A model generated the notes under the pieces. The model was not told the DNA's origin and made no database searches. It saw only the letters and a program-made list of their open reading frames with translations. Positions 7,028 through 33,228 of a DNA stretch of 64,000 bases are shown here, piece after piece; position 1 is the stretch's first letter, and every line of letters begins with the position of its first letter. The position numbers and the translations under genes are program-made. This DNA is from Patescibacteria group bacterium (GTDB lineage: Bacteria; Patescibacteriota; UBA1384; XYA2-FULL-43-10; 1-14-0-10-43-13), in assembly GCA_041666325.1 (NCBI GenBank), contig JBAYHC010000002.1:157319-221318 (forward strand). The letters run 5' to 3'.

Positions 7028-7050
7028 TTCATTTCGAATATGATCTCAGC

Positions 7051-7080
7051 AAAAGTCCCGCGTTCACGGGACTTTTGCTA
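7051..7080 (+). terminator. Intrinsic terminator after greA
   Basis: Hairpin AAAAGTCCCG-CGTTCA-CGGGACTTTT followed by TTTGC. Confidence 0.7.
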
Positions 7081-7101
7081 TTCGGTCATCTTGGATAATC
7101 G

Positions 7102-7130
7102 TTGACGTATTTTTTCTGCCGTTGTATTAT
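7102..7130 (+). promoter_or_regulatory. Sigma70-like promoter (TTGACG-17-TATTAT) for the ORF at 7176
   Basis: Consensus-like hexamers with 17-nt spacing, about 45 nt upstream of the ATG. An AAAAGGAGA RBS precedes the start. Confidence 0.5.
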
Positions 7131-7175
7131 CGAATCACACGTTAACTCGGCTAGGATAAGCCAAAAGGAGACACC

Positions 7176-7784
7176 ATGGGAGACGAAAGAATGGAAAGAT
7201 TTTTGGGTGGCGAAGTGGGTGCATCTTATCTGCCGCATCACACAGATGAGGCGGTTATCACAAGTGTCACGGATCCAAACACCGGCGCTGTTTACACGCC
7301 AGGAGACAAAGGTGTTGGTGCTGTTCCAGTTCCCGAAGCTAGTCCTGGTGCAGACGAGACGGGGGATGAAGAATATCAGGGCCAGAAATTTGCTGTGACG
7401 ATCCGGGAGAGCGATGAGCAGCTGGGCTGGAGGAAGGTTGGCGATGAGCTGTCTCTGCCCCAAACCGGTCTTACATTTACTGATGGTTCACGTTATTTTT
7501 CTGAAGGAATAGGATCAGAGAGGCTTGATATTCCAGCCGAATCAATTAGAAAGCTTGTTCGTCCGGAGATTGTGAAGAGGTTGGAAGCGGTCATCGGTAA
7601 GGAGCTCGAAGGGCAAGTGCCGCTTACGGCGCAGATATCTCCGTCAAATTATTATGCCAACGGTGTTCGAATTGAAGATCCTGGTTTGCAGAACGAGATT
7701 TATAGCCTTATTCAAATTTATACCAATCACCGCAAACGGTTCGTTGCTCCGGGCGCAGATGAGGCCGGACCAGCAGCTAAGTAA
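7176..7784 (+). CDS. Hypothetical protein (202 aa)
   Basis: ORF with a good SD sequence and a downstream terminator. No family recognised. Confidence 0.5.
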   Translation: MGDERMERFLGGEVGASYLPHHTDEAVITSVTDPNTGAVYTPGDKGVGAVPVPEASPGADETGDEEYQGQKFAVTIRESDEQLGWRKVGDELSLPQTGLTFTDGSRYFSEGIGSERLDIPAESIRKLVRPEIVKRLEAVIGKELEGQVPLTAQISPSNYYANGVRIEDPGLQNEIYSLIQIYTNHRKRFVAPGADEAGPAAK

Positions 7785-7800
7785 ATACAGCCAATTACAA

Positions 7801-7831
7801 AAAATCATCCAGTAGATCGGATGATTTTTTG
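7801..7831. terminator. Intrinsic terminator (hairpin AATCATCC-loop-GGATGATT followed by T6), potentially bidirectional
   Basis: 8-bp stem at 7803-7810/7819-7826 followed by TTTTTT. An A-run precedes the hairpin, so it may also act on the minus strand. Confidence 0.7.
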
Positions 7832-7877
7832 ATACTAGAGTGCAGAATGAACAAACTATTGTTCGCTCTGTTCTCTG

Positions 7878-7906
7878 CTGATCCGGCGGCGGGGCCGCCG
7901 GATCAG
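7878..7906 (-). repeat. GC-rich hairpin copy A (13-bp stem CTGATCCGGCGGC / GCCGCCGGATCAG, 3-nt loop), immediately 3' of the minus-strand gene at 7915
   Basis: Perfect inverted repeat seen in the sequence; no U-tract follows it in the minus sense. It is near-identical to copy B at 8991-9019, differing by one compensatory base-pair change. Confidence 0.8.
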
Positions 7907-7914
7907 CGTGTGTG

Positions 7915-8850
7915 CTACAGCGTTCTGGCTGTCAGGACTGCGTATGGCTTCTGCGCCCTGACGTTGGTCAGCCGCCACTGATCGTTCCGGCGGTTGACTG
8001 TTACGATGTAGCTCGCCTTGGTGGCGCTGGCACCGCCAAGGATAGAGATCCAGCGGAAGTCTACCCGATACTTCCTGCCCTTCCAGAGGCAAGATGTCTC
8101 GATGGTAGGGGTGATGATTCCGGCCTCGTCGAGCGGAAGGTACGCCAGGTTGGCGCACCTCGTCGTCAGGCCGGGGTTTCCCTCGATGGCTCTGAGGCGA
8201 GCAAACTCCCTCTCGACGAAGGCCGCAGCCGGGTCCTCCTCTGCTCCGGCGTAGGGGTTCAGTCCGCGGTAGTCGTCCCCGATCAGGCTAGGATCGTGCC
8301 TGGGGAAGGGCGGAAGCGGAAAGCCACAGTGCTCGAGCGCCTCTTCGCGGCTGTCGACCTCACGGCCGATGCCCTCGAAAGCGACATTCCAGGACAGGGC
8401 ATTCATACCATAATATGGGATGGCCTCTGGTCTGACGTCGATGTCCCTCGCGGAGTTTATGATCTCCTTTTCCTTCCACTCGGGACAGTTCTTCTTCCTG
8501 TTGATGGTGTAGCGGTAGTGGCCGATCTCACGGCCGGTGGGGAAGCGGTAGATGAGGTGTGCGGCATTGCCGACTACTTCGACCTGGGTGTAATTCTCCA
8601 GGTTGGGCCATGCCTCGAAGATGGCCCAGACACGAGATTGCTCATCTGACCATTCTCCGGTGAAGGTTGGCGGCAGGGAGCCGCCTCGATAGTAGTGGAA
8701 GGTGCTGATGACCTTCTCTTCGTGCTCAGCGCATCGTTGCGACGCTTGCTCGATGTACGGCACTCCGATGCCCACTGCGATCATGCCGGCAAGCCCTGCG
8801 GCAATGAGTGTGGTCAATGCAGTTGCTGCTAGTCTTGTCAATCGTTCCAT
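7915..8850 (-). CDS. Hypothetical exported/membrane-anchored protein, high GC (cassette gene A). The ORF track extends to 8907; the likely start is the Met at 8850 (MERLTRL...)
   Basis: N-terminal hydrophobic segment (LAATALTTLIAAGLAGMIAVGIG), preceded by an AAGGAGAG RBS. GC about 62% versus about 45% for the flanking DNA. No family recognised. Confidence 0.5.
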   Translation of the reverse strand: MERLTRLAATALTTLIAAGLAGMIAVGIGVPYIEQASQRCAEHEEKVISTFHYYRGGSLPPTFTGEWSDEQSRVWAIFEAWPNLENYTQVEVVGNAAHLIYRFPTGREIGHYRYTINRKKNCPEWKEKEIINSARDIDVRPEAIPYYGMNALSWNVAFEGIGREVDSREEALEHCGFPLPPFPRHDPSLIGDDYRGLNPYAGAEEDPAAAFVEREFARLRAIEGNPGLTTRCANLAYLPLDEAGIITPTIETSCLWKGRKYRVDFRWISILGGASATKASYIVTVNRRNDQWRLTNVRAQKPYAVLTARTL

Positions 8851-8925
8851 CTTGCCTCTCCTTGCGTCGTGCACATTGGTGGGCTCGAGTGCCCAACCGA
8901 ATGACAAGCGCCAAACGATGGCTCC

Positions 8926-8943
8926 TGTTTGCGACGATCGAGA
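8926..8943 (-). promoter_or_regulatory. Conserved leader element (plus-strand text GTTTGCGACGATCGAG; minus-sense CTCGATCGTCGCAAAC) upstream of cassette gene A
   Basis: 16/17-nt identity with the element at 10038-10054 upstream of gene B. It sits inside ~130-nt leaders that are about 60-70% identical, while the two coding regions are unrelated. Confidence 0.55.
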
Positions 8944-8990
8944 TTGCTTAATCTAAACAATTATCGATTGTCACAAGAATGGTATTGTTA

Positions 8991-9019
8991 CTGGTCCGGC
9001 GGCGGGGCCGCCGGACCAG
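8991..9019 (-). repeat. GC-rich hairpin copy B (CTGGTCCGGCGGC / GCCGCCGGACCAG), 3' of the minus-strand gene at 9029
   Basis: Perfect 13-bp inverted repeat. It differs from copy A only by the A:T to G:C change at one stem position. Confidence 0.8.
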
Positions 9020-9028
9020 CTGGTATAC

Positions 9029-9970
9029 TTACTTTCGCCACGGCGGGTTGCCGAAGCGACCGAGCGGGATCTGTTTCGTCCCGGCCGTGCCGGTGGCGAT
9101 CAAGAAGTCCTCGGTGCATTCGAGCCTCTTGATGAGGCCGATCTTGGGGTTGATCCCCGTGAACATCTCGCCGAGCTTGTACTTATCCTCGAACGGCTGG
9201 TAGGCGCAGACCGCCCGAATAGTGCGGCCCTCCTCCTCGACAAGGAAGACCACGTCGTTGTGGCGGCGGTTGATTGCGAGGCAGCCGGTGCTGCCGGTGT
9301 TCTTGAACTGGGCGTCCTGGTACCGGGTGCTTTCGGACGGGCTGATGGTCTGGATGATCCCGTCCATCGTTGCGTAGGCGACTGCGCCGGTGCGCAGATC
9401 ATGGTCAAGTGCGGCCACCTCGGAGTTTTCGTTGAACCAGAGCGGCCTGCTCTGGTCCCTGGAGCAGACGGCCCAGCCGACCTTCGGCTTGGGCTCCATG
9501 ATCTGGTGCCAGGTCCTGACCCCGTACACCTGCTGATCGGGTGTGGACATGTAGGCAACCCCAACGAACTGCAGGTAGGCCTCCATGTAGGTGGCCGGCG
9601 TGAAGACCGGTGTTGACACGGCCTCCAGCCAGATGCGCATGCCCGGTTTGAGCTCCTTGAAGCGGAGGTAGTCCGGGTGGGTAGGCGGGATGCAGATCTT
9701 CCGCCAGCCGTCCTGCCCGTAGTTGACCTTGATAGTGATGTGCTTAGTGAAAGCGCGATCACTTCCCATCTGGTCCCCGTAGCTGATGGCGGTAACGACC
9801 CCGCCGTCAGCGAGCGGCTTGACGAACGCCTTCGCCTCCTCTTCGGCTCTCACCTCAGACCTTGCATTCAGGACGTCGTCCTGATGCCAGATCCAGGTTC
9901 CGACCCAGAGGGTCATGAGGATGAGGCAGAATCCAAGCGCGATCTTCAGTGACTTCTCGATCTCTGTCAT
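9029..9970 (-). CDS. Hypothetical membrane-anchored protein, high GC (cassette gene B). The ORF track extends to 10090; the likely start is the Met at 9970 (MTEIEKSLK...). It may be a Cys-dependent peptidase-like protein (STGCLAI)
   Basis: N-terminal TM (IALGFCLILMTLWVGTWIW) and a GGGAGAGAAAG RBS. The leader resembles that of gene A. A weak L,D-transpeptidase-like Cys motif is present, but the family is not established. Confidence 0.5.
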   Translation of the reverse strand: MTEIEKSLKIALGFCLILMTLWVGTWIWHQDDVLNARSEVRAEEEAKAFVKPLADGGVVTAISYGDQMGSDRAFTKHITIKVNYGQDGWRKICIPPTHPDYLRFKELKPGMRIWLEAVSTPVFTPATYMEAYLQFVGVAYMSTPDQQVYGVRTWHQIMEPKPKVGWAVCSRDQSRPLWFNENSEVAALDHDLRTGAVAYATMDGIIQTISPSESTRYQDAQFKNTGSTGCLAINRRHNDVVFLVEEEGRTIRAVCAYQPFEDKYKLGEMFTGINPKIGLIKRLECTEDFLIATGTAGTKQIPLGRFGNPPWRK

Positions 9971-10037
9971 CTGCTTTCTCTCCCAACGTCGCTGGTGGTG
10001 GCGGGTTCTTTTTCCCCAACCCAACTGCAAAGTACTC

Positions 10038-10054
10038 GTTTGCGACGATCGAGC
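10038..10054 (-). promoter_or_regulatory. Conserved leader element (CGTTTGCGACGATCGAG) upstream of cassette gene B
   Basis: Second copy of the element seen at 8926-8943. Confidence 0.55.
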
Positions 10055-10190
10055 TTGTCTGGTCTTGCCAAACAATTTCGATCGCCGCAACGTGTCGACT
10101 TTGAGAAAAATCTATTCTTTCTGATTGTTAAAGAACGTAATATCATATCATAATTTATTAAAATTGTCAATAGAGCCAAGGACAGACTGC

Positions 10191-10218
10191 TTGACATTGG
10201 GTCGTATTGTGATATCAT
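10191..10218 (+). promoter_or_regulatory. Sigma70-like promoter TTGACA-16-TATCAT upstream of the ORF at 10248
   Basis: Consensus -35 at 10191-10196 and a -10-like hexamer at 10213-10218, in an AT-rich intergenic region. Confidence 0.5.
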
Positions 10219-10247
10219 GATGGCTAGCTTAATCAGCTACTTGCTGA

Positions 10248-11066
10248 TTGGGACTATATGGGAAAGAGGATAACCACGTGGATGGAAGTCAGGGGGCTAT
10301 TCGTGTCTATCTGATTTGGCTGCCTAATCCAGGCGGCAAAACATTGAAGAGCTATTATGATGATTGGCGGGTATATCCTTCACACATCAATAGCGAGGCT
10401 CGCACTCCGGATTGCGGAGTAAGAGTCGAAAGTCCGCGAGCGTTCACTTATGAAGAGTGCATGCTGTTTAAGCATCCGACCCAGAACATCTATTTTGCCT
10501 ATCCGGTTGTTGGCGGTGAGCCTTTCTTGATGCCGGGGGTTTACTCGCCGTACGAAGTGATTTGGAGAGAAAACGCCAAGCGCCAGGGTGTATCGGGCAT
10601 GATTTACCATGATCGCACACCCACTTACTTTCGGATTCTTTGCGGCGCCAGCAATACCAAGGACCAGCAGAGTCCAAATCCCAGCCTGTCGGGGAATTGG
10701 AGTAGTGAGGAGCCGTTAAAAGATGGCGATGTTAGATTGTGCTGGATTGGTTGGCAGTTGACAGATACGGGTAACATTGTTGGCTATGCTTATCCGGCAG
10801 TCCAATCAGACGAAGCCGAAAAGGCCACTGACGCGGTAATGATTGATGTTGAGGCTCGCCGGGGTGTTGTCCAAGTAGAGAACCATATACTCATCCTTGG
10901 CGGTGACCAGAGGGCACGGGTTTCGGCTCGGAAGCAGGGCGACCATGTCGTAATTGTCATATCCGGCGGGACCCGTAATAACGGGACCAACGGTAGCAAA
11001 GTATTGGCGCCCGGTGTGCTTGATCTTGCGTGCGCTGATGGCGTGTCTTTTGCTCCATTAGGCTAG
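10248..11066 (+). CDS. Hypothetical protein (272 aa), moderately high GC
   Basis: ORF downstream of a promoter and followed by a hairpin plus T6 at about 11074-11102. No family recognised. Confidence 0.45.
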   Translation: MGLYGKEDNHVDGSQGAIRVYLIWLPNPGGKTLKSYYDDWRVYPSHINSEARTPDCGVRVESPRAFTYEECMLFKHPTQNIYFAYPVVGGEPFLMPGVYSPYEVIWRENAKRQGVSGMIYHDRTPTYFRILCGASNTKDQQSPNPSLSGNWSSEEPLKDGDVRLCWIGWQLTDTGNIVGYAYPAVQSDEAEKATDAVMIDVEARRGVVQVENHILILGGDQRARVSARKQGDHVVIVISGGTRNNGTNGSKVLAPGVLDLACADGVSFAPLG

Positions 11067-11073
11067 ATTGCTG

Positions 11074-11102
11074 TTGCGCTGCCCGCTGGGTGGCGCTTTT
11101 TT
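11074..11102 (+). terminator. Probable intrinsic terminator (imperfect GC hairpin followed by T6)
   Basis: GCGCTGCCCGCTGGGTGGCGC followed by TTTTTT. Confidence 0.4.
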
Positions 11103-11203
11103 CATTCTGCGACTCCCTGCTTCATTTTCAGATCAAAACGTGTTACATTACAGACAATCACAAAGCTATGATTTAGAGGGCTAGTAACCCAAAAAGGAGT
11201 TCT

Positions 11204-27017: not shown

Positions 27018-27599
27018 TCACCGAGGCGAGAACTTGATCGGAAAGGTCTTGGTCGCACTCTTGCCTTTCCACTCGATCTTGACCAGGACCTCGCCACGGT
27101 CCATCTTGGGGAGCAAGACGCTCTCTTCGTGTTCGAAAATGAAGACGTCCTTTGGCGGTGCCAAGGAACGCCACTCGTAGGAGATGACCGGAGTCATCCT
27201 GCCTGCGATCTTCTCGTGGTGCATGTAGAACTTGCTTGTCTCGAACTTGCGACGCCGGTAGGCGATGTAGTGGCCGTTTGCGTCACGTAACCAGATGTGG
27301 GTAGTTAGCCCACGGATCAGGGGTACCCAGGCGAACACCTGCATGCTGTTGATGTCGGTGTACTGGAAGGACTTGCCGTTCGGGTCCAGGCCGGACTCGA
27401 ACTGGGGCAGGGCCTCCTTTGTTACCGTAACAAGGGCCTTCTCAAAGAAGGTGCTGGGCTGGTAGCTGCGGATCTTCTCCTCGCGCAGGTCTTCGCGACT
27501 CCCCTTGACTGTCTCGCAGCGCAAATCCGGCGGGATAGGTCCCGCAAGCGCCGCCGACATGGCCGTGACGACCAAGGTTATAATCAGCCGTTGTTTCAT
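27018..27599 (-). CDS. Hypothetical secreted protein, high GC. The ORF track extends to 27716; the likely start is the Met at 27599 (MKQRLIITLVVTAMSAALAG...)
   Basis: Signal-peptide-like N-terminus, GGAGGGA RBS, and an upstream TTGCAC-17-TACAGT promoter at about 27618-27646 (minus sense). No family recognised. Confidence 0.5.
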   Translation of the reverse strand: MKQRLIITLVVTAMSAALAGPIPPDLRCETVKGSREDLREEKIRSYQPSTFFEKALVTVTKEALPQFESGLDPNGKSFQYTDINSMQVFAWVPLIRGLTTHIWLRDANGHYIAYRRRKFETSKFYMHHEKIAGRMTPVISYEWRSLAPPKDVFIFEHEESVLLPKMDRGEVLVKIEWKGKSATKTFPIKFSPR

Positions 27600-31368: not shown

Positions 31369-31397
31369 TGTTGCCCTCTTGACAAATATCCACGCCT
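31369..31397 (+). promoter_or_regulatory. Near-consensus sigma70 promoter (TTGACA-17-TGgTAGCAT) driving a non-coding GC-rich unit
   Basis: -35 TTGACA at 31369-31374, 17-nt spacer, extended -10 TGgTAGCAT ending at 31397. The predicted transcription start is about 31405. Confidence 0.6.
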
Positions 31398-31404
31398 GTG
31401 GTAG

Positions 31405-32550
31405 CATATTGGCCATATCGTCGATGACGTGAGCGACGTTCGGAAGGAAAGGACGGAGGAATGAAGATCCTCGCTGTTCGCTGACCGACACGCGGCGCGG
31501 GCGCTCCTGGCGAGCGCGGATGGTACTGACCTCTTGTAGGTCTGCGGCGAGGCCTTGCCTCACCCATCCGGTTTACGCCAGGCGGGCGTTCGTCCGCCCA
31601 GTTCAAAATCACTTCTGACGAGTTTCCGTCGGCCCAAACCGGCGGAAGGGTCCCGCAGGCAAACCCCTCCAGGGGGTCCGACCGCGACAACGCGGGACTC
31701 ATCACGATGACGGGAGGTACGCATGGTCACGACGCGCACCTCCGCCCAGCACAGCGTTAAGGCCGCTGGCTAGCCAGGCGGACGTCATCACCCACCCTTC
31801 GGTTCGGGAGGCGCGAATGAGGGTAACACCAAGAACGCGCGCCCGCATGGCGCAGGCATTCGGTGCCTGACCAGCCAGCGGGTCACATCATGTCGACTGC
31901 AAGACCGCACGACCAGGCTCCGGCTGATAACATCATGCCGGAACGCCAAAACAATGCGAATAGGAGCCGCTCGACTGAGCGCGGCGCGGACTTGATCCGG
32001 GCAGCCTTCCGCTCAGCGCCATTGAGCTCCTTGCCCCACATGGGGCCGCAATGCAGACGAGGGCCAGCGCCAAATCGGCCCTCACAAGTGCGTTTCAAGC
32101 AGTACCCACCAATAAAGCCCCGGTGAAACTCCGGGACCCTCAGCAAGCAGTGCCTACTAATGTCCGGGTGCAATTCCCGGCTCATGAGGTGCAAGATGAC
32201 TACATGCCAAGTGGCGACGGCGCGGGAAGAGGGTTCCCGTCTGCTATCGCCCCTGGGGTAGTCCACGGAGGGGTCCGGCGGGCGCGGGTTCGAAACCAGC
32301 GCAAAGCCGGCACAGACCGCCGACTAGGTCAAGTGCACAGGCCTAGACGGCCCAGAACGGGCAGCGCCCCTGCCCCGGCCCGCCAGCCTCAGGCTGGAAG
32401 ACAAAAAGGGGTCGGGCGCCTCACGGCGCGCCCACAGGACGCCGGCGCAAGCGCCGGCCGGATCACTCCGCGGGCGTGGGGAGAGCGGCTTTCGCCGCCT
32501 CCCCGCCCCAATCTCAGACGGCAGTCAACCACGACTGCCTGTTTTTTTTA
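31405..32550 (+). ncRNA. Candidate large structured non-coding RNA (about 1.15 kb, about 65% GC); class undetermined
   Basis: Bounded by a strong promoter and a canonical intrinsic terminator. It contains only short Arg/Pro-rich frames typical of GC-rich non-coding DNA, and has many local and long-range stems. A sub-segment (about 32108-32160) loosely resembles the RNase P CR-II/P11 region (GGTGAAACTCC...AGCAAG). No tmRNA or RNase P identity could be established by eye. Confidence 0.4.
32520..32550 (+). terminator. Intrinsic terminator (GGCAGT-CAACCACG-ACTGCC followed by TGTTTTTTTT)
   Basis: Perfect 6-bp GC stem followed by a U8 tract. Confidence 0.8.
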
Positions 32551-32631: not shown

Positions 32632-33228
32632 ATGACAAATATCAGAGGTAAGAAGATCATAGAATGGAGAGACGAGAACTACTATAGACGCAGAAGACCG
32701 ATGGCCCAAAAAGCAAGATCTACCGTTGAAGCAACGCTTGATCTGTTGTTGGCAGTGCCGGAGAGTTTGGTGGCAGTGTTTGAGCGAAGGTCAATCTACG
32801 AAGCAATAAGCACTTCTTCGGAAAAAGTGTTGACGGTTGAGAATATCAGTAAGATTTTTCATGGCCTGAAGCGCACTGGATACATCGAAACTACCAAGGA
32901 CAGTAGTGGCCTTGAGTCAGTCCAATTTACCAATAAAGCTAAGCTAAGAGTCATTGATGCAATTGCCGGTTGCCAGGGTTGGGATGAGAAATATCGTTTG
33001 GTTTCATTTGATATTCCTGAACGAATGAGGAACAATCGCGACAAGTTTCGTCGGGCAATCAAGAGGATCGGATTTAGGCAGATCCAAAAAAGCCTCTGGG
33101 TATGCAATCGGAACGTCGAAGAGCTGGTCGGCGTCGCATCGAACGAATACGGTGTTTCGACCTACACTGTCTGTGTCATTGCCGACAAGACAGATATCGA
33201 TAGCGCTATCAGCAAGATGTTCAAATAA
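32632..33228 (+). CDS. PaaX-like transcriptional regulator (N-terminal winged helix plus PaaX_C-type C-terminal domain)
   Basis: wHTH-like segment (ISKIFHGLKRTGYIE) and a C-terminal region colinear with E. coli PaaX (WDEKYRLVSFDIPERMRNNRDKFRRAIKRIGFRQIQKSLWV versus WDGKWLLLLSEGL...VKKQLIWQGFGALAPSLMA). AGGAGTGGG RBS. Confidence 0.6.
   Translation: MTNIRGKKIIEWRDENYYRRRRPMAQKARSTVEATLDLLLAVPESLVAVFERRSIYEAISTSSEKVLTVENISKIFHGLKRTGYIETTKDSSGLESVQFTNKAKLRVIDAIAGCQGWDEKYRLVSFDIPERMRNNRDKFRRAIKRIGFRQIQKSLWVCNRNVEELVGVASNEYGVSTYTVCVIADKTDIDSAISKMFK

Follow-up and report, generated by a model that had tools for sequence, protein, structure and literature searches.

Genes A and B are adjacent minus-strand genes in a 64-kb stretch of DNA (hereafter, the window) from a ~264-kb contig in the metagenome-assembled genome of a Patescibacteria group bacterium, the single genome considered here. 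They encode two membrane-anchored orphan proteins, and each gene is flanked by the same pair of non-coding elements: a long leader hairpin (LH) ahead of the Shine-Dalgarno sequence (SD) and a GC-rich hairpin (GH) just past the stop codon. In the reading to which we assign an even chance, the two genes constitute a horizontally acquired two-cistron operon, with each cistron bracketed by duplicated cis-acting RNA modules for processing and stability. An original prediction, made from the nucleotide sequence, had described A and B as unrelated genes packaged in look-alike cassettes. All of the sequence features that it described are present where it had placed them, and three that it had not mentioned are added here: a long hairpin in each leader, one promoter for the pair, located upstream of gene B, and foreign codon usage in both genes. 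Read on the minus strand from position 10170 to position 7798, the locus comprises the promoter, a leader of ~165 nt, gene B, GH-B, a second leader, gene A, GH-A, and a terminator, with the following features:

10142-10170, minus strand: predicted sigma-70 promoter of the B-A unit; TTGACA, 17-nt spacer, TATGAT, with TG ahead of the -10 element; 11/12 consensus positions (promoter scan)
10038-10091, minus strand: LH-B, long leader hairpin of gene B (inverted-repeat search and folding)
10000-10021, minus strand: P2-B, small second leader hairpin of gene B (folding and sequence reading)
9978-9984, minus strand: SD of gene B, GGGAGAG, 7 nt ahead of the ATG
9029-9970, minus strand: gene B, 313 amino acids; N-terminal transmembrane helix; GC content at third codon positions (GC3) of 0.86
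8991-9019, minus strand: GH-B, GC-rich 3′ hairpin; first stem base 9 nt past the TAA stop codon
8927-8977, minus strand: LH-A, long leader hairpin of gene A (inverted-repeat search and folding)
8878-8898, minus strand: P2-A, small second leader hairpin of gene A (folding)
8856-8862, minus strand: SD of gene A, AGGAGAG, 5 nt ahead of the ATG
7915-8850, minus strand: gene A, 311 amino acids; N-terminal transmembrane helix; GC3 of 0.74
7877-7907, minus strand: GH-A, GC-rich 3′ hairpin; first stem base 7 nt past the TAG stop codon
7798-7831, both strands: bidirectional intrinsic terminator; A-run, 13-bp stem (13-nt arms, 100% complementary), T-run

The two 5′ leaders are homologous, as had been claimed: a global alignment of the stretches from LH to the ATG gave z = 8.3, with 0/1000 shuffles as good, compared with z values of -1.5 to 2.6 for seven other leaders of the window used as controls. 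The part of the leader downstream of LH is still weakly similar between the copies (z = 2.8). The 16-mer CTCGATCGTCGCAAAC is present twice, and a 20-nt block, corresponding to the 3′ arm of LH, agrees at 19 of 20 positions. The original prediction had treated 'ATCGAwAATTGTTTrG' and CAAnCTCGATCGTCGCAAAC as two separate leader blocks; both are indeed conserved, but they are the 5′ and 3′ arms, respectively, of one long hairpin. LH-B has ~23 bp, a 2x2 internal loop, and a CAAGA loop, with 23-nt arms that are 83% complementary; its lower stem is (G)UUGCGGCGAUCGA / UCGAUCGUCGCAA(AC) and its upper stem UUGUUUGG / CCAGACAA. LH-A has ~20 bp, 1x1 (A·C mismatch) and 2x1 internal loops, and a GAU loop, and is made up of the stems UUGUGAC / GUCGCAA, AUCGA / UCGAU, and AUUGUUUA / UAAGCAAU. 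The folded leaders reach -50.4 kcal/mol for B (z = -3.8) and -48.5 kcal/mol for A (z = -4.2).

Comparison of the two LH copies showed that 10 of the 14 pairs of the lower stem are invariant, that two one-sided changes stay paired (C-G to U·G, and G·U to A-U), and that two pairs are unpaired in copy A. Reading of the upper stem from the sequence shows an exchange of position between two U-A/U·G pairs, and A-U in place of the apical G-C. Ahead of the SD lies the second, smaller hairpin P2, with the consensus GGUUGGG ... CCCRCC; P2-B (GGUUGGGG ... CCCGCC) contains a U·G pair at the place where P2-A (GGUUGGGC ... GCCCACC) has U-A. The leader covariance model scored 141-143 bits on the sense strand vs 22-30 bits on the antisense strand. 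Since the G·U pairs become C·A mismatches on the plus strand, the model is weak in the antisense direction; these pairs let LH fold properly on the sense strand only, which argues for an RNA structure rather than a symmetric DNA site. With two sequences, this is an indication, not proof, that LH is an RNA structure. Rfam returned only sub-threshold chance matches between positions 7600 and 10400 (IRES_Bip, 17 bits; ar7, 16 bits), and nothing at the gathering threshold in the entire window.

The 3′ hairpins are near-identical in sequence. GH-B reads CUGGUCCGGCGGC-CCC-GCCGCCGGACCAG, with 13 bp, or 14 when a G·U pair is counted, and GH-A reads GCUGAUCCGGCGGC-CCC-GCCGCCGGAUCAGC, with 14 bp. Measured against shuffles, both folds are exceptional (GH-B, -31.2 kcal/mol, z = -5.8; GH-A, -34.4 kcal/mol, z = -7.3), and the 21-nt GH core occurs exactly twice in the 64 kb, even when 3 mismatches are allowed, with 0.01 occurrences expected from shuffles. 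Pairing is kept at 100% between the copies, and 12 of the 14 pairs are unchanged. The near-identity of the copies and the compensatory A-U/G-C double change between them had been recognized at the outset; the double change is not the single difference, however, as one further change, G-C to G·U, occurs at the stem foot. Similarly, the hairpins do lie close behind the stop codons, but their stems begin 7-9 nt after the stop rather than the 8-10 nt first given.

As had also been noted, the GHs are not canonical terminators. No T-run follows either hairpin—the sequence after GH-B is UAACAAUACC, and that after the 14-bp stem of GH-A is AGAGAACAGA—and neither is listed by the terminator scan; a role as an intrinsic (Rho-independent) terminator, which would call for a U-tract directly behind the hairpin, was rejected on these grounds. 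Other genes of the window, for example those encoding GreA, orf272, and the 193-amino-acid protein at 27018-27599, as well as a candidate RNA gene ending near 32545, are closed by hairpin-plus-T-run terminators, and GH is thus not of the host's terminator type.

Taken together, the flanks show a mosaic of conservation, in which the stems are kept while the loops and spacers are randomized, with a 12-nt indel in one spacer. Such a pattern points to stems under selection rather than to a recent copying event. It seems that structure matters in both LH and GH, as the original prediction proposed from the compensatory change: most stem differences keep pairing, and the G·U pairs allow proper folding in the sense orientation only. 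Two copies cannot carry a test, however, and in the covariation test of GH (n = 2 copies) 237 of 500 shuffles equalled the observed score. The similarity between the copies starts and stops sharply at the stop and start codons. The leaders have a host-like GC content of 0.47-0.48. At the three junctions, similarity outside LH and GH is weak: an AACAAT motif and, upstream of LH-B, what may be a remnant of a third GH gave z = 1.1-2.7 and are not relied on.

The same palindromes may be read at the level of DNA, as operators or cruciforms for a dimeric DNA-binding protein that co-regulates or silences A and B, with RNA folding being incidental. LH and GH are both palindromic, GH being a perfect 13-14-bp inverted repeat that is near-identical in the two copies; the LH 3′ arm is invariant over 16 nt, and the conservation of sequence exceeds what a purely structural RNA role needs. 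A symmetric operator, however, would not tolerate the G·U pairs of LH (C·A on the other strand), its internal loops, or a loop of 5 nt in one copy and 3 nt in the other. Moreover, LH-B is separated by ~50 nt or more from the -10 element on its upstream side and the GHs lie past stop codons, both unusual positions for operators, and no candidate regulator gene is present in the island. We consider this alternative distinctly unlikely.

Genes A and B are real coding genes with foreign codon usage. Their overall GC contents of 0.60 and 0.61 are high, as predicted, although slightly lower than the ~62% first estimated. By codon position, GC is 0.57/0.48/0.74 in A and 0.55/0.43/0.86 in B, a high-GC coding signature in the called frame, and the GC3 values (A, z = 4.6; B, z = 6.8) stand well above the 0.486 +/- 0.055 of the 50 other open reading frames (ORFs) of the window. 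The ratio of ATC to ATT codons is 20:1 in gene A and again in gene B vs 33:51 in host genes. Expression-driven codon bias was considered as a source of the high GC3 and ruled out: the genes for ribosomal protein S2, EF-Ts, and RRF have GC3 values of 0.42-0.47 (S2, 0.43), and the bias of A and B is therefore not an expression effect. Both frames are open upstream of the SD-preceded ATG, to a TTG at 8907 (A) and 10090 (B), giving mechanical ORFs of 330 and 353 amino acids, respectively; in the B frame, the first base of the upstream extension coincides with that of the LH 5′ arm. To judge from the GGAGAG motif 5-7 nt upstream of each ATG, the ATG starts are far more likely than the TTG extensions. 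The pair is represented by the NCBI protein entries WCT32_03160 and WCT32_03165 ('Patescibacteria group bacterium'). The gene calls of an assembly in ENA omit gene B and place two antisense ORFs of 91 and 118 amino acids in its stead (L001, 8899-9174 and 9235-9591); the GC contents of gene B by codon position support the 313-amino-acid call of NCBI over these ORFs.

Both proteins are orphans. Each has one strongly hydrophobic N-terminal segment and nothing comparable beyond it in the hydropathy profile, in agreement with the secreted or membrane type originally proposed; both proteins are membrane-anchored. No relative of A or B was found in Pfam, PHROGs, or PDB sequences; in a search of 5.8 billion protein clusters each retrieved only itself, and a full HMMER search with gene B against 1.84 billion representatives likewise gave itself as the sole match. 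AlphaFold2 single-sequence models reached mean pLDDT values of 36 (A) and 42 (B), which are too poor for comparing folds. As far as sequence tests go, the claim that A and B are unrelated to each other was borne out. BLASTP gave E = 0.04 over a 36-residue out-of-register patch, which is not a significant similarity; global and local alignments compared with shuffles gave z = 1.6-1.8; hhalign assigned a probability of <1%; and the hydropathy profiles showed no correlation in register. None of these tests brought out a hidden paralogy of A and B, nor did an all-against-all comparison with the other orphan ORFs of the window.

The foreign codon usage is also what would be expected if the flanking elements were inert relics from a high-GC donor, with GH being an 'I-shaped' terminator of the donor's type, lacking a U-tract, and LH one of the donor's regulatory sites. 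The copies would then be alike only through duplication of the unit in the donor or homogenization by gene conversion, and would have no function in the present host. GH is indeed unlike the terminators of the host, and no relative carries the locus, such that no conservation can be demonstrated. The mosaic of kept stems, randomized loops and spacers, and a 12-nt indel is, however, the pattern of selection rather than of recent copying, and the stem differences keep pairing more often than random substitution would. An origin as inert relics is thus regarded as unlikely.

With respect to transcription, the promoter scan identified one strong sigma-70 site upstream of gene B, outside the conserved part of the leader, and no promoter-like site in the 178-nt spacer between B and A; the best candidate found by eye in leader A (TTGTGA, 15-nt spacer, TAGATT) is weak. 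The terminator at 7798-7831, located ~45 nt past GH-A and serving orf202 on the plus strand, is the sole hairpin-plus-T-run signal downstream of the B-A unit on the minus strand. From a single promoter above B, none in the spacer, and a T-run hairpin only after A, we infer one bicistronic mRNA, in which B and A would be co-transcribed. The promoter of the B-A unit is one of two near-consensus sigma-70 promoters standing back to back at 10142-10218, with TTGACA-17-TATGAT on the minus strand and TTGACA-16-TATCAT on the plus strand. Both show 11/12 matches and a TG ahead of the -10 element within an AT-rich spacer of ~150 nt, and the plus-strand promoter (10191-10218) serves orf272, which is divergent from the B-A unit.

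In the proposed mechanism, A and B would form an operon encoding two membrane-anchored orphan proteins, acquired horizontally and transcribed from the host-type promoter at 10170-10142 to the bidirectional terminator at 7831-7798. Each cistron would carry a 5′ module consisting of the ~23-bp LH, the small hairpin, and the GGAGAG SD, and a 3′ module consisting of GH, with 13-14 bp and an all-G/C core 7-9 nt past the stop codon. Both LH and GH would act on mRNA and not on DNA. LH may serve as an RNase III-type processing or protein-binding duplex that separates or insulates the cistrons and sets the translation of the gene downstream, and GH may block 3′ exonucleases, stabilizing each processed message. 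The shared modules would place two different cargo genes in the same expression context. The unit of ~1.11 kb, comprising LH, SD, coding sequence, and GH, would have been repeated locally in tandem, with the coding regions having diverged beyond recognition or one of them having been replaced. In length and continuity, LH-B and LH-A both match RNase III substrates, which are largely uninterrupted RNA duplexes of ~20 bp or more, in many cases with an internal loop. The action of LH and GH at the RNA level, the involvement of RNase III, and the origin by duplication are presented as a model.

The dimensions of the two units bear on their origin. The distance from GH to GH is 1113 nt and that from LH to LH is 1111 nt, with the units being strictly tandem, and the proteins, of 311 and 313 amino acids, have the same topology with a single N-terminal transmembrane helix. 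Equal spacing, lengths, and topology are what a tandem duplication of the unit from LH to GH leaves; had the two cargo genes been captured independently, they would hardly be expected to agree in length.

Several points weigh against this model of duplicated RNA modules. No RNase III family was found among the window ORFs scanned against Pfam, and no dedicated search of the genome was made. Co-transcription, processing, and the effect on stability are predictions from sequence, and a covariation statistic with two copies carries no weight. The 12 unchanged pairs of the 14 in GH and the 19 matching positions of the 20 in the LH 3′ arm stand beside a randomized neighboring spacer; such near-identity is better explained by recent gene conversion, or by a protein or recombinase that recognizes the specific sequence, than by structure alone. 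There is a tension between a stem-selective mosaic and a conservation of sequence greater than structure requires. An origin by tandem duplication predicts paralogous proteins, yet similarity between A and B is undetectable, and GC3 values of 0.74 in A and 0.86 in B are odd for duplicates of the same age. Finally, within this genome the copy search covered 64 kb of the ~264-kb contig.

Further copies of the leader and the hairpin, for which the original prediction had suggested a search, were sought with the leader covariance model (with filters off in the window) and with a GH pattern search. The covariance model found nothing but the two leaders in the 64-kb window and no copy in the syntenic loci of four related genomes. 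The full GH pattern, searched in one genome per GTDB species, had one match, an isolated palindrome in Nocardia whose loop differs. In JGI metagenomes, eight matches to the 19-mer from the 3′ arm of LH were obtained, all within coding sequence and without the 5′ arm. Four scans of IMG/VR gave chance matches only, the best of which, located in a coding region, had a model score of 19 bits. The source contig was returned by neither large collection; the genome is therefore not in them, and for this lineage their negatives are weak. In the phage and plasmid collections, the 2.45-kb region had no BLASTN match. The integrase for which the surroundings of the locus were to be searched is absent among the window ORFs of at least 150 amino acids, in which Pfam identified no integrase, transposase, reverse-transcriptase, or phage-specific families.

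These searches bear directly on the proposal that the units are recombination cassettes, in which LH, GH, or the spacer from GH to LH would be a swap site for orphan surface-protein genes, resembling either the promoter-early stem-loop (PeSL) cassettes of phages or the attC sites of integrons, with A and B coming from a pool that is larger and unsampled. The non-coding flanks are conserved although the coding regions between them have no detectable similarity, the similarity of the flanks is bounded sharply by stop and start codons, and both cargo genes are orphans with foreign codon usage. GH and the LH 3′ arm are kept in sequence and not in structure alone; the corresponding slot of relatives holds a different gene, for an aminoacyl-tRNA synthetase, indicating a plastic locus; and PeSLs show that regulatory stem-loop modules are able to mediate the shuffling of orphan genes (PMC2839356; PMC4122927). 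However, there are two copies only, in one tandem array with equal unit length. The leader model has no further copy in the window or in the loci of relatives, and the scans of public collections gave chance matches. The 64-kb window lacks an integrase, a transposase, and a reverse transcriptase; no R′′/R′ core sites and no extrahelical bases are present; and, unlike in PeSLs, the conserved spacer contains no promoter. In addition, a third high-GC3 gene for a secreted orphan protein (27018-27599) has entirely different flanks. With the leader and the hairpin having been found nowhere else, an outcome that the original prediction itself had named as refuting, the cassette idea—including its attC-like and mobile-module variants—fails on the present data, and recombination cassettes appear decidedly improbable. 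A related conjecture is that LH and GH are the ends of an undescribed, integrase-independent, PeSL-like recombination module of candidate-phyla-radiation (CPR) bacteria, which would exchange foreign orphan surface-protein genes within a population, each with its own RNA expression 'adaptor', from a pool that is as yet unsampled. By analogy with the phage systems such a module is conceivable, but we hold it to be very unlikely. The repetition of A and B looks like a local tandem repeat and not like the footprint of an active cassette-mobilizing system.

The genomic setting is cellular, with MreB, MreC, PBP2, GreA, seryl-tRNA synthetase (SerRS), SecA, and similar housekeeping genes as neighbors in the window. 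The nearest seryl-tRNA synthetases include several labelled Berkelbacteria, with a top identity of just 77%. In three relatives, whose SerRS is 74-77% identical, the interval between GreA and SerRS holds a class II aminoacyl-tRNA synthetase (tRNA-synt_2, 423-489 amino acids; L037 8337-10001, L039 8421-10001, and L041 1747-3368, compared with 7030-11200 of the window). In the window, the same slot contains four genes without known families (orf202, A, B, and orf272) in three separate transcription units, and no tRNA-synt_2 gene was found among the window ORFs. The slot thus differs in content between the window and its relatives and is plastic.

A 2.2-kb stretch differing sharply in GC from its surroundings, with genes that have no relatives anywhere in the searched databases, raises the question of an assembly artefact, namely a fragment of a high-GC organism mis-joined into a Patescibacteria contig. 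Across 18.85 kb at the locus, however, the 231,582-bp ENA MEGAHIT contig is identical base for base to the 264,019-bp contig of the other assembly, and the same syntenic host genes lie on both sides of the insert. The upstream promoter region is AT-rich, host-like, and common to the divergent host-type promoter, the downstream terminator is common to orf202, and the leaders themselves have the host-like GC content given above. The identity of the two assemblies, together with a promoter region and a terminator shared with host-type neighbors, makes a chimeric assembly very unlikely, to the point that we find an artefact scarcely credible.

Two other GC-rich outliers were observed in the window. 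A third outlier gene, at 27018-27599 on the minus strand (GC3 0.76, z = 5.0), encodes a 193-amino-acid protein with a signal-peptide-like N-terminus (MKQRLIITLVVTAMSAALAG) and no Pfam match; it has its own promoter-like sequence, identified by eye, and is closed by a canonical T-run terminator, while its flanks show no relation to the leader and hairpin of A and B. The three high-GC3 genes of the window are all located on its minority strand, and all code for membrane or exported proteins. At 31390-32545 on the plus strand, a region of ~1.1 kb with a GC content of 63-65% lacks both codon periodicity (GC by phase, 0.68/0.64/0.63) and a convincing ORF. It has a promoter-like site near 31379 (TTGACA-17-TAGCAT) and a hairpin with a T-run at ~32505-32545, and its folding compared with shuffles gave z = -3.1 on the plus strand and -4.7 on the minus strand. 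No Rfam match at E <= 1, no tRNA, and no tmRNA was found in it. This region, located beside a PaaX/Cas2-like gene (32632-33228), is a candidate for a large structured non-coding RNA of no known family.

If the reading of LH and GH as RNA modules is true, they would be natural 'expression insulators', with the same 5′ duplex and 3′ clamp placed around two foreign genes in a small symbiont genome. This would bear on how episymbiotic Patescibacteria domesticate horizontally acquired surface proteins, and would provide a cellular counterpart to the repeated regulatory modules of phages, namely PeSLs and the SAS/ESAS elements considered below. The practical weight is small, as the case concerns a single genome and two copies and rests on sequence. 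Its main value is negative, in that the A/B locus should not be classed among mobile cassette systems, whether integron-like or of another kind.

Among known systems, the PeSL cassettes of T4-type phages contain a G/C-rich stem-loop and an SD, bracketing unrelated orphan genes, with a strong sigma-70 promoter in every copy, and each phage genome has ~50 of them, situated in its hyperplastic regions (Arbiol, Comeau & Krisch, 2010, PMC2839356; Comeau et al., 2014, PMC4122927). The present locus shares with them the conserved flanks around unrelated cargo and the G/C-rich stem-loop between a stop codon and the next start codon beside orphan genes. It differs in that no promoter was detected in the B-A spacer, in that two copies are present, in a cellular housekeeping neighborhood, with no match in PHROGs or in the phage DNA collection, and in that two distinct hairpins, 5′ and 3′, take the place of one composite element. 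Furthermore, no recombination between the copies is evident. In Cluster K mycobacteriophages, SAS is a conserved motif, the 13-mer GGGATAGGAGCCC, overlapping the ribosome-binding site just upstream of the starts of unrelated genes; in ESAS an imperfect inverted repeat (17 bp) lies ahead of it, separated by a variable spacer (Pope et al., 2011, PMC3203893). SAS is present in 11-19 copies per phage genome, and a translational function is suspected (PMC3203893). The likeness to A and B lies in the order of an inverted repeat and then an SD-overlapping conserved block, whereas the SAS 13-mer and the 17-bp repeats are absent here, the number of copies is two, and SAS/ESAS have no paired 3′ hairpin.

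The GHs resemble REP elements in being stable GC-rich palindromes a few nucleotides past a stop codon, without a U-tract, and plausible as shields against 3′ exonucleases. REP and BIME elements are imperfect palindromes found in tens to hundreds of copies per genome, usually with a GTAG head recognized by a RAYT transposase, and stable 3′ stem-loops such as REP elements protect the upstream mRNA. GH, in contrast, is perfect and has two matches in 64 kb at 3 mismatches, with no GTAG at either stem foot and no transposase-like protein in the window. Intercistronic duplex hairpins of ~20 bp or more are classic RNase III sites, as in the early mRNAs of T7, where the sites are single elements and cleavage leaves a 3′ hairpin on the upstream message. 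Long hairpins of this size with an internal loop likewise occur here in polycistronic spacers ahead of unrelated genes; they show no sequence similarity to the T7 sites and form part of a 5′ and 3′ pair, and their cleavage is a prediction.

Like integron cassettes, A and B are ORFs that point the same way and are unrelated to each other, with a repeat able to form a hairpin after each of them, and the repeats of chromosomal integrons are highly conserved. Here, however, there is no IntI tyrosine recombinase and no attI, and no ORF of at least 150 amino acids in the window matches a Pfam integrase. No RYYYAAC (R′′)/GTTRRRY (R′) pair surrounds GH, and the order in LH, GTT...AAC, is opposite to that in attC. 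The palindrome of GH, 29 nt long with a loop of 3 nt, is perfect and has no extrahelical bases, whereas attC sites are imperfect and 57-141 nt long, and the conserved 5′ leader of each gene is lacking in integron cassettes. Two further candidates were rejected. A target of a diversity-generating retroelement was set aside in view of the absence from the window of any repeat involving the 3′ ends of A and B, of a variable/template-repeat pair, and of a reverse transcriptase, and a palindrome-bounded element of the IS200/IS605 type (PATE) in view of the unrelated sequences of LH and GH and the absence of a transposase in the window. Since the locus fails at least one sequence-testable defining feature of each of these families, it is filed under none of them. 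Overall, it would work like a repeated regulatory stem-loop module; what is new in this variant is that the elements come as a 5′ and 3′ pair and that the genome is a cellular one, from a CPR bacterium.

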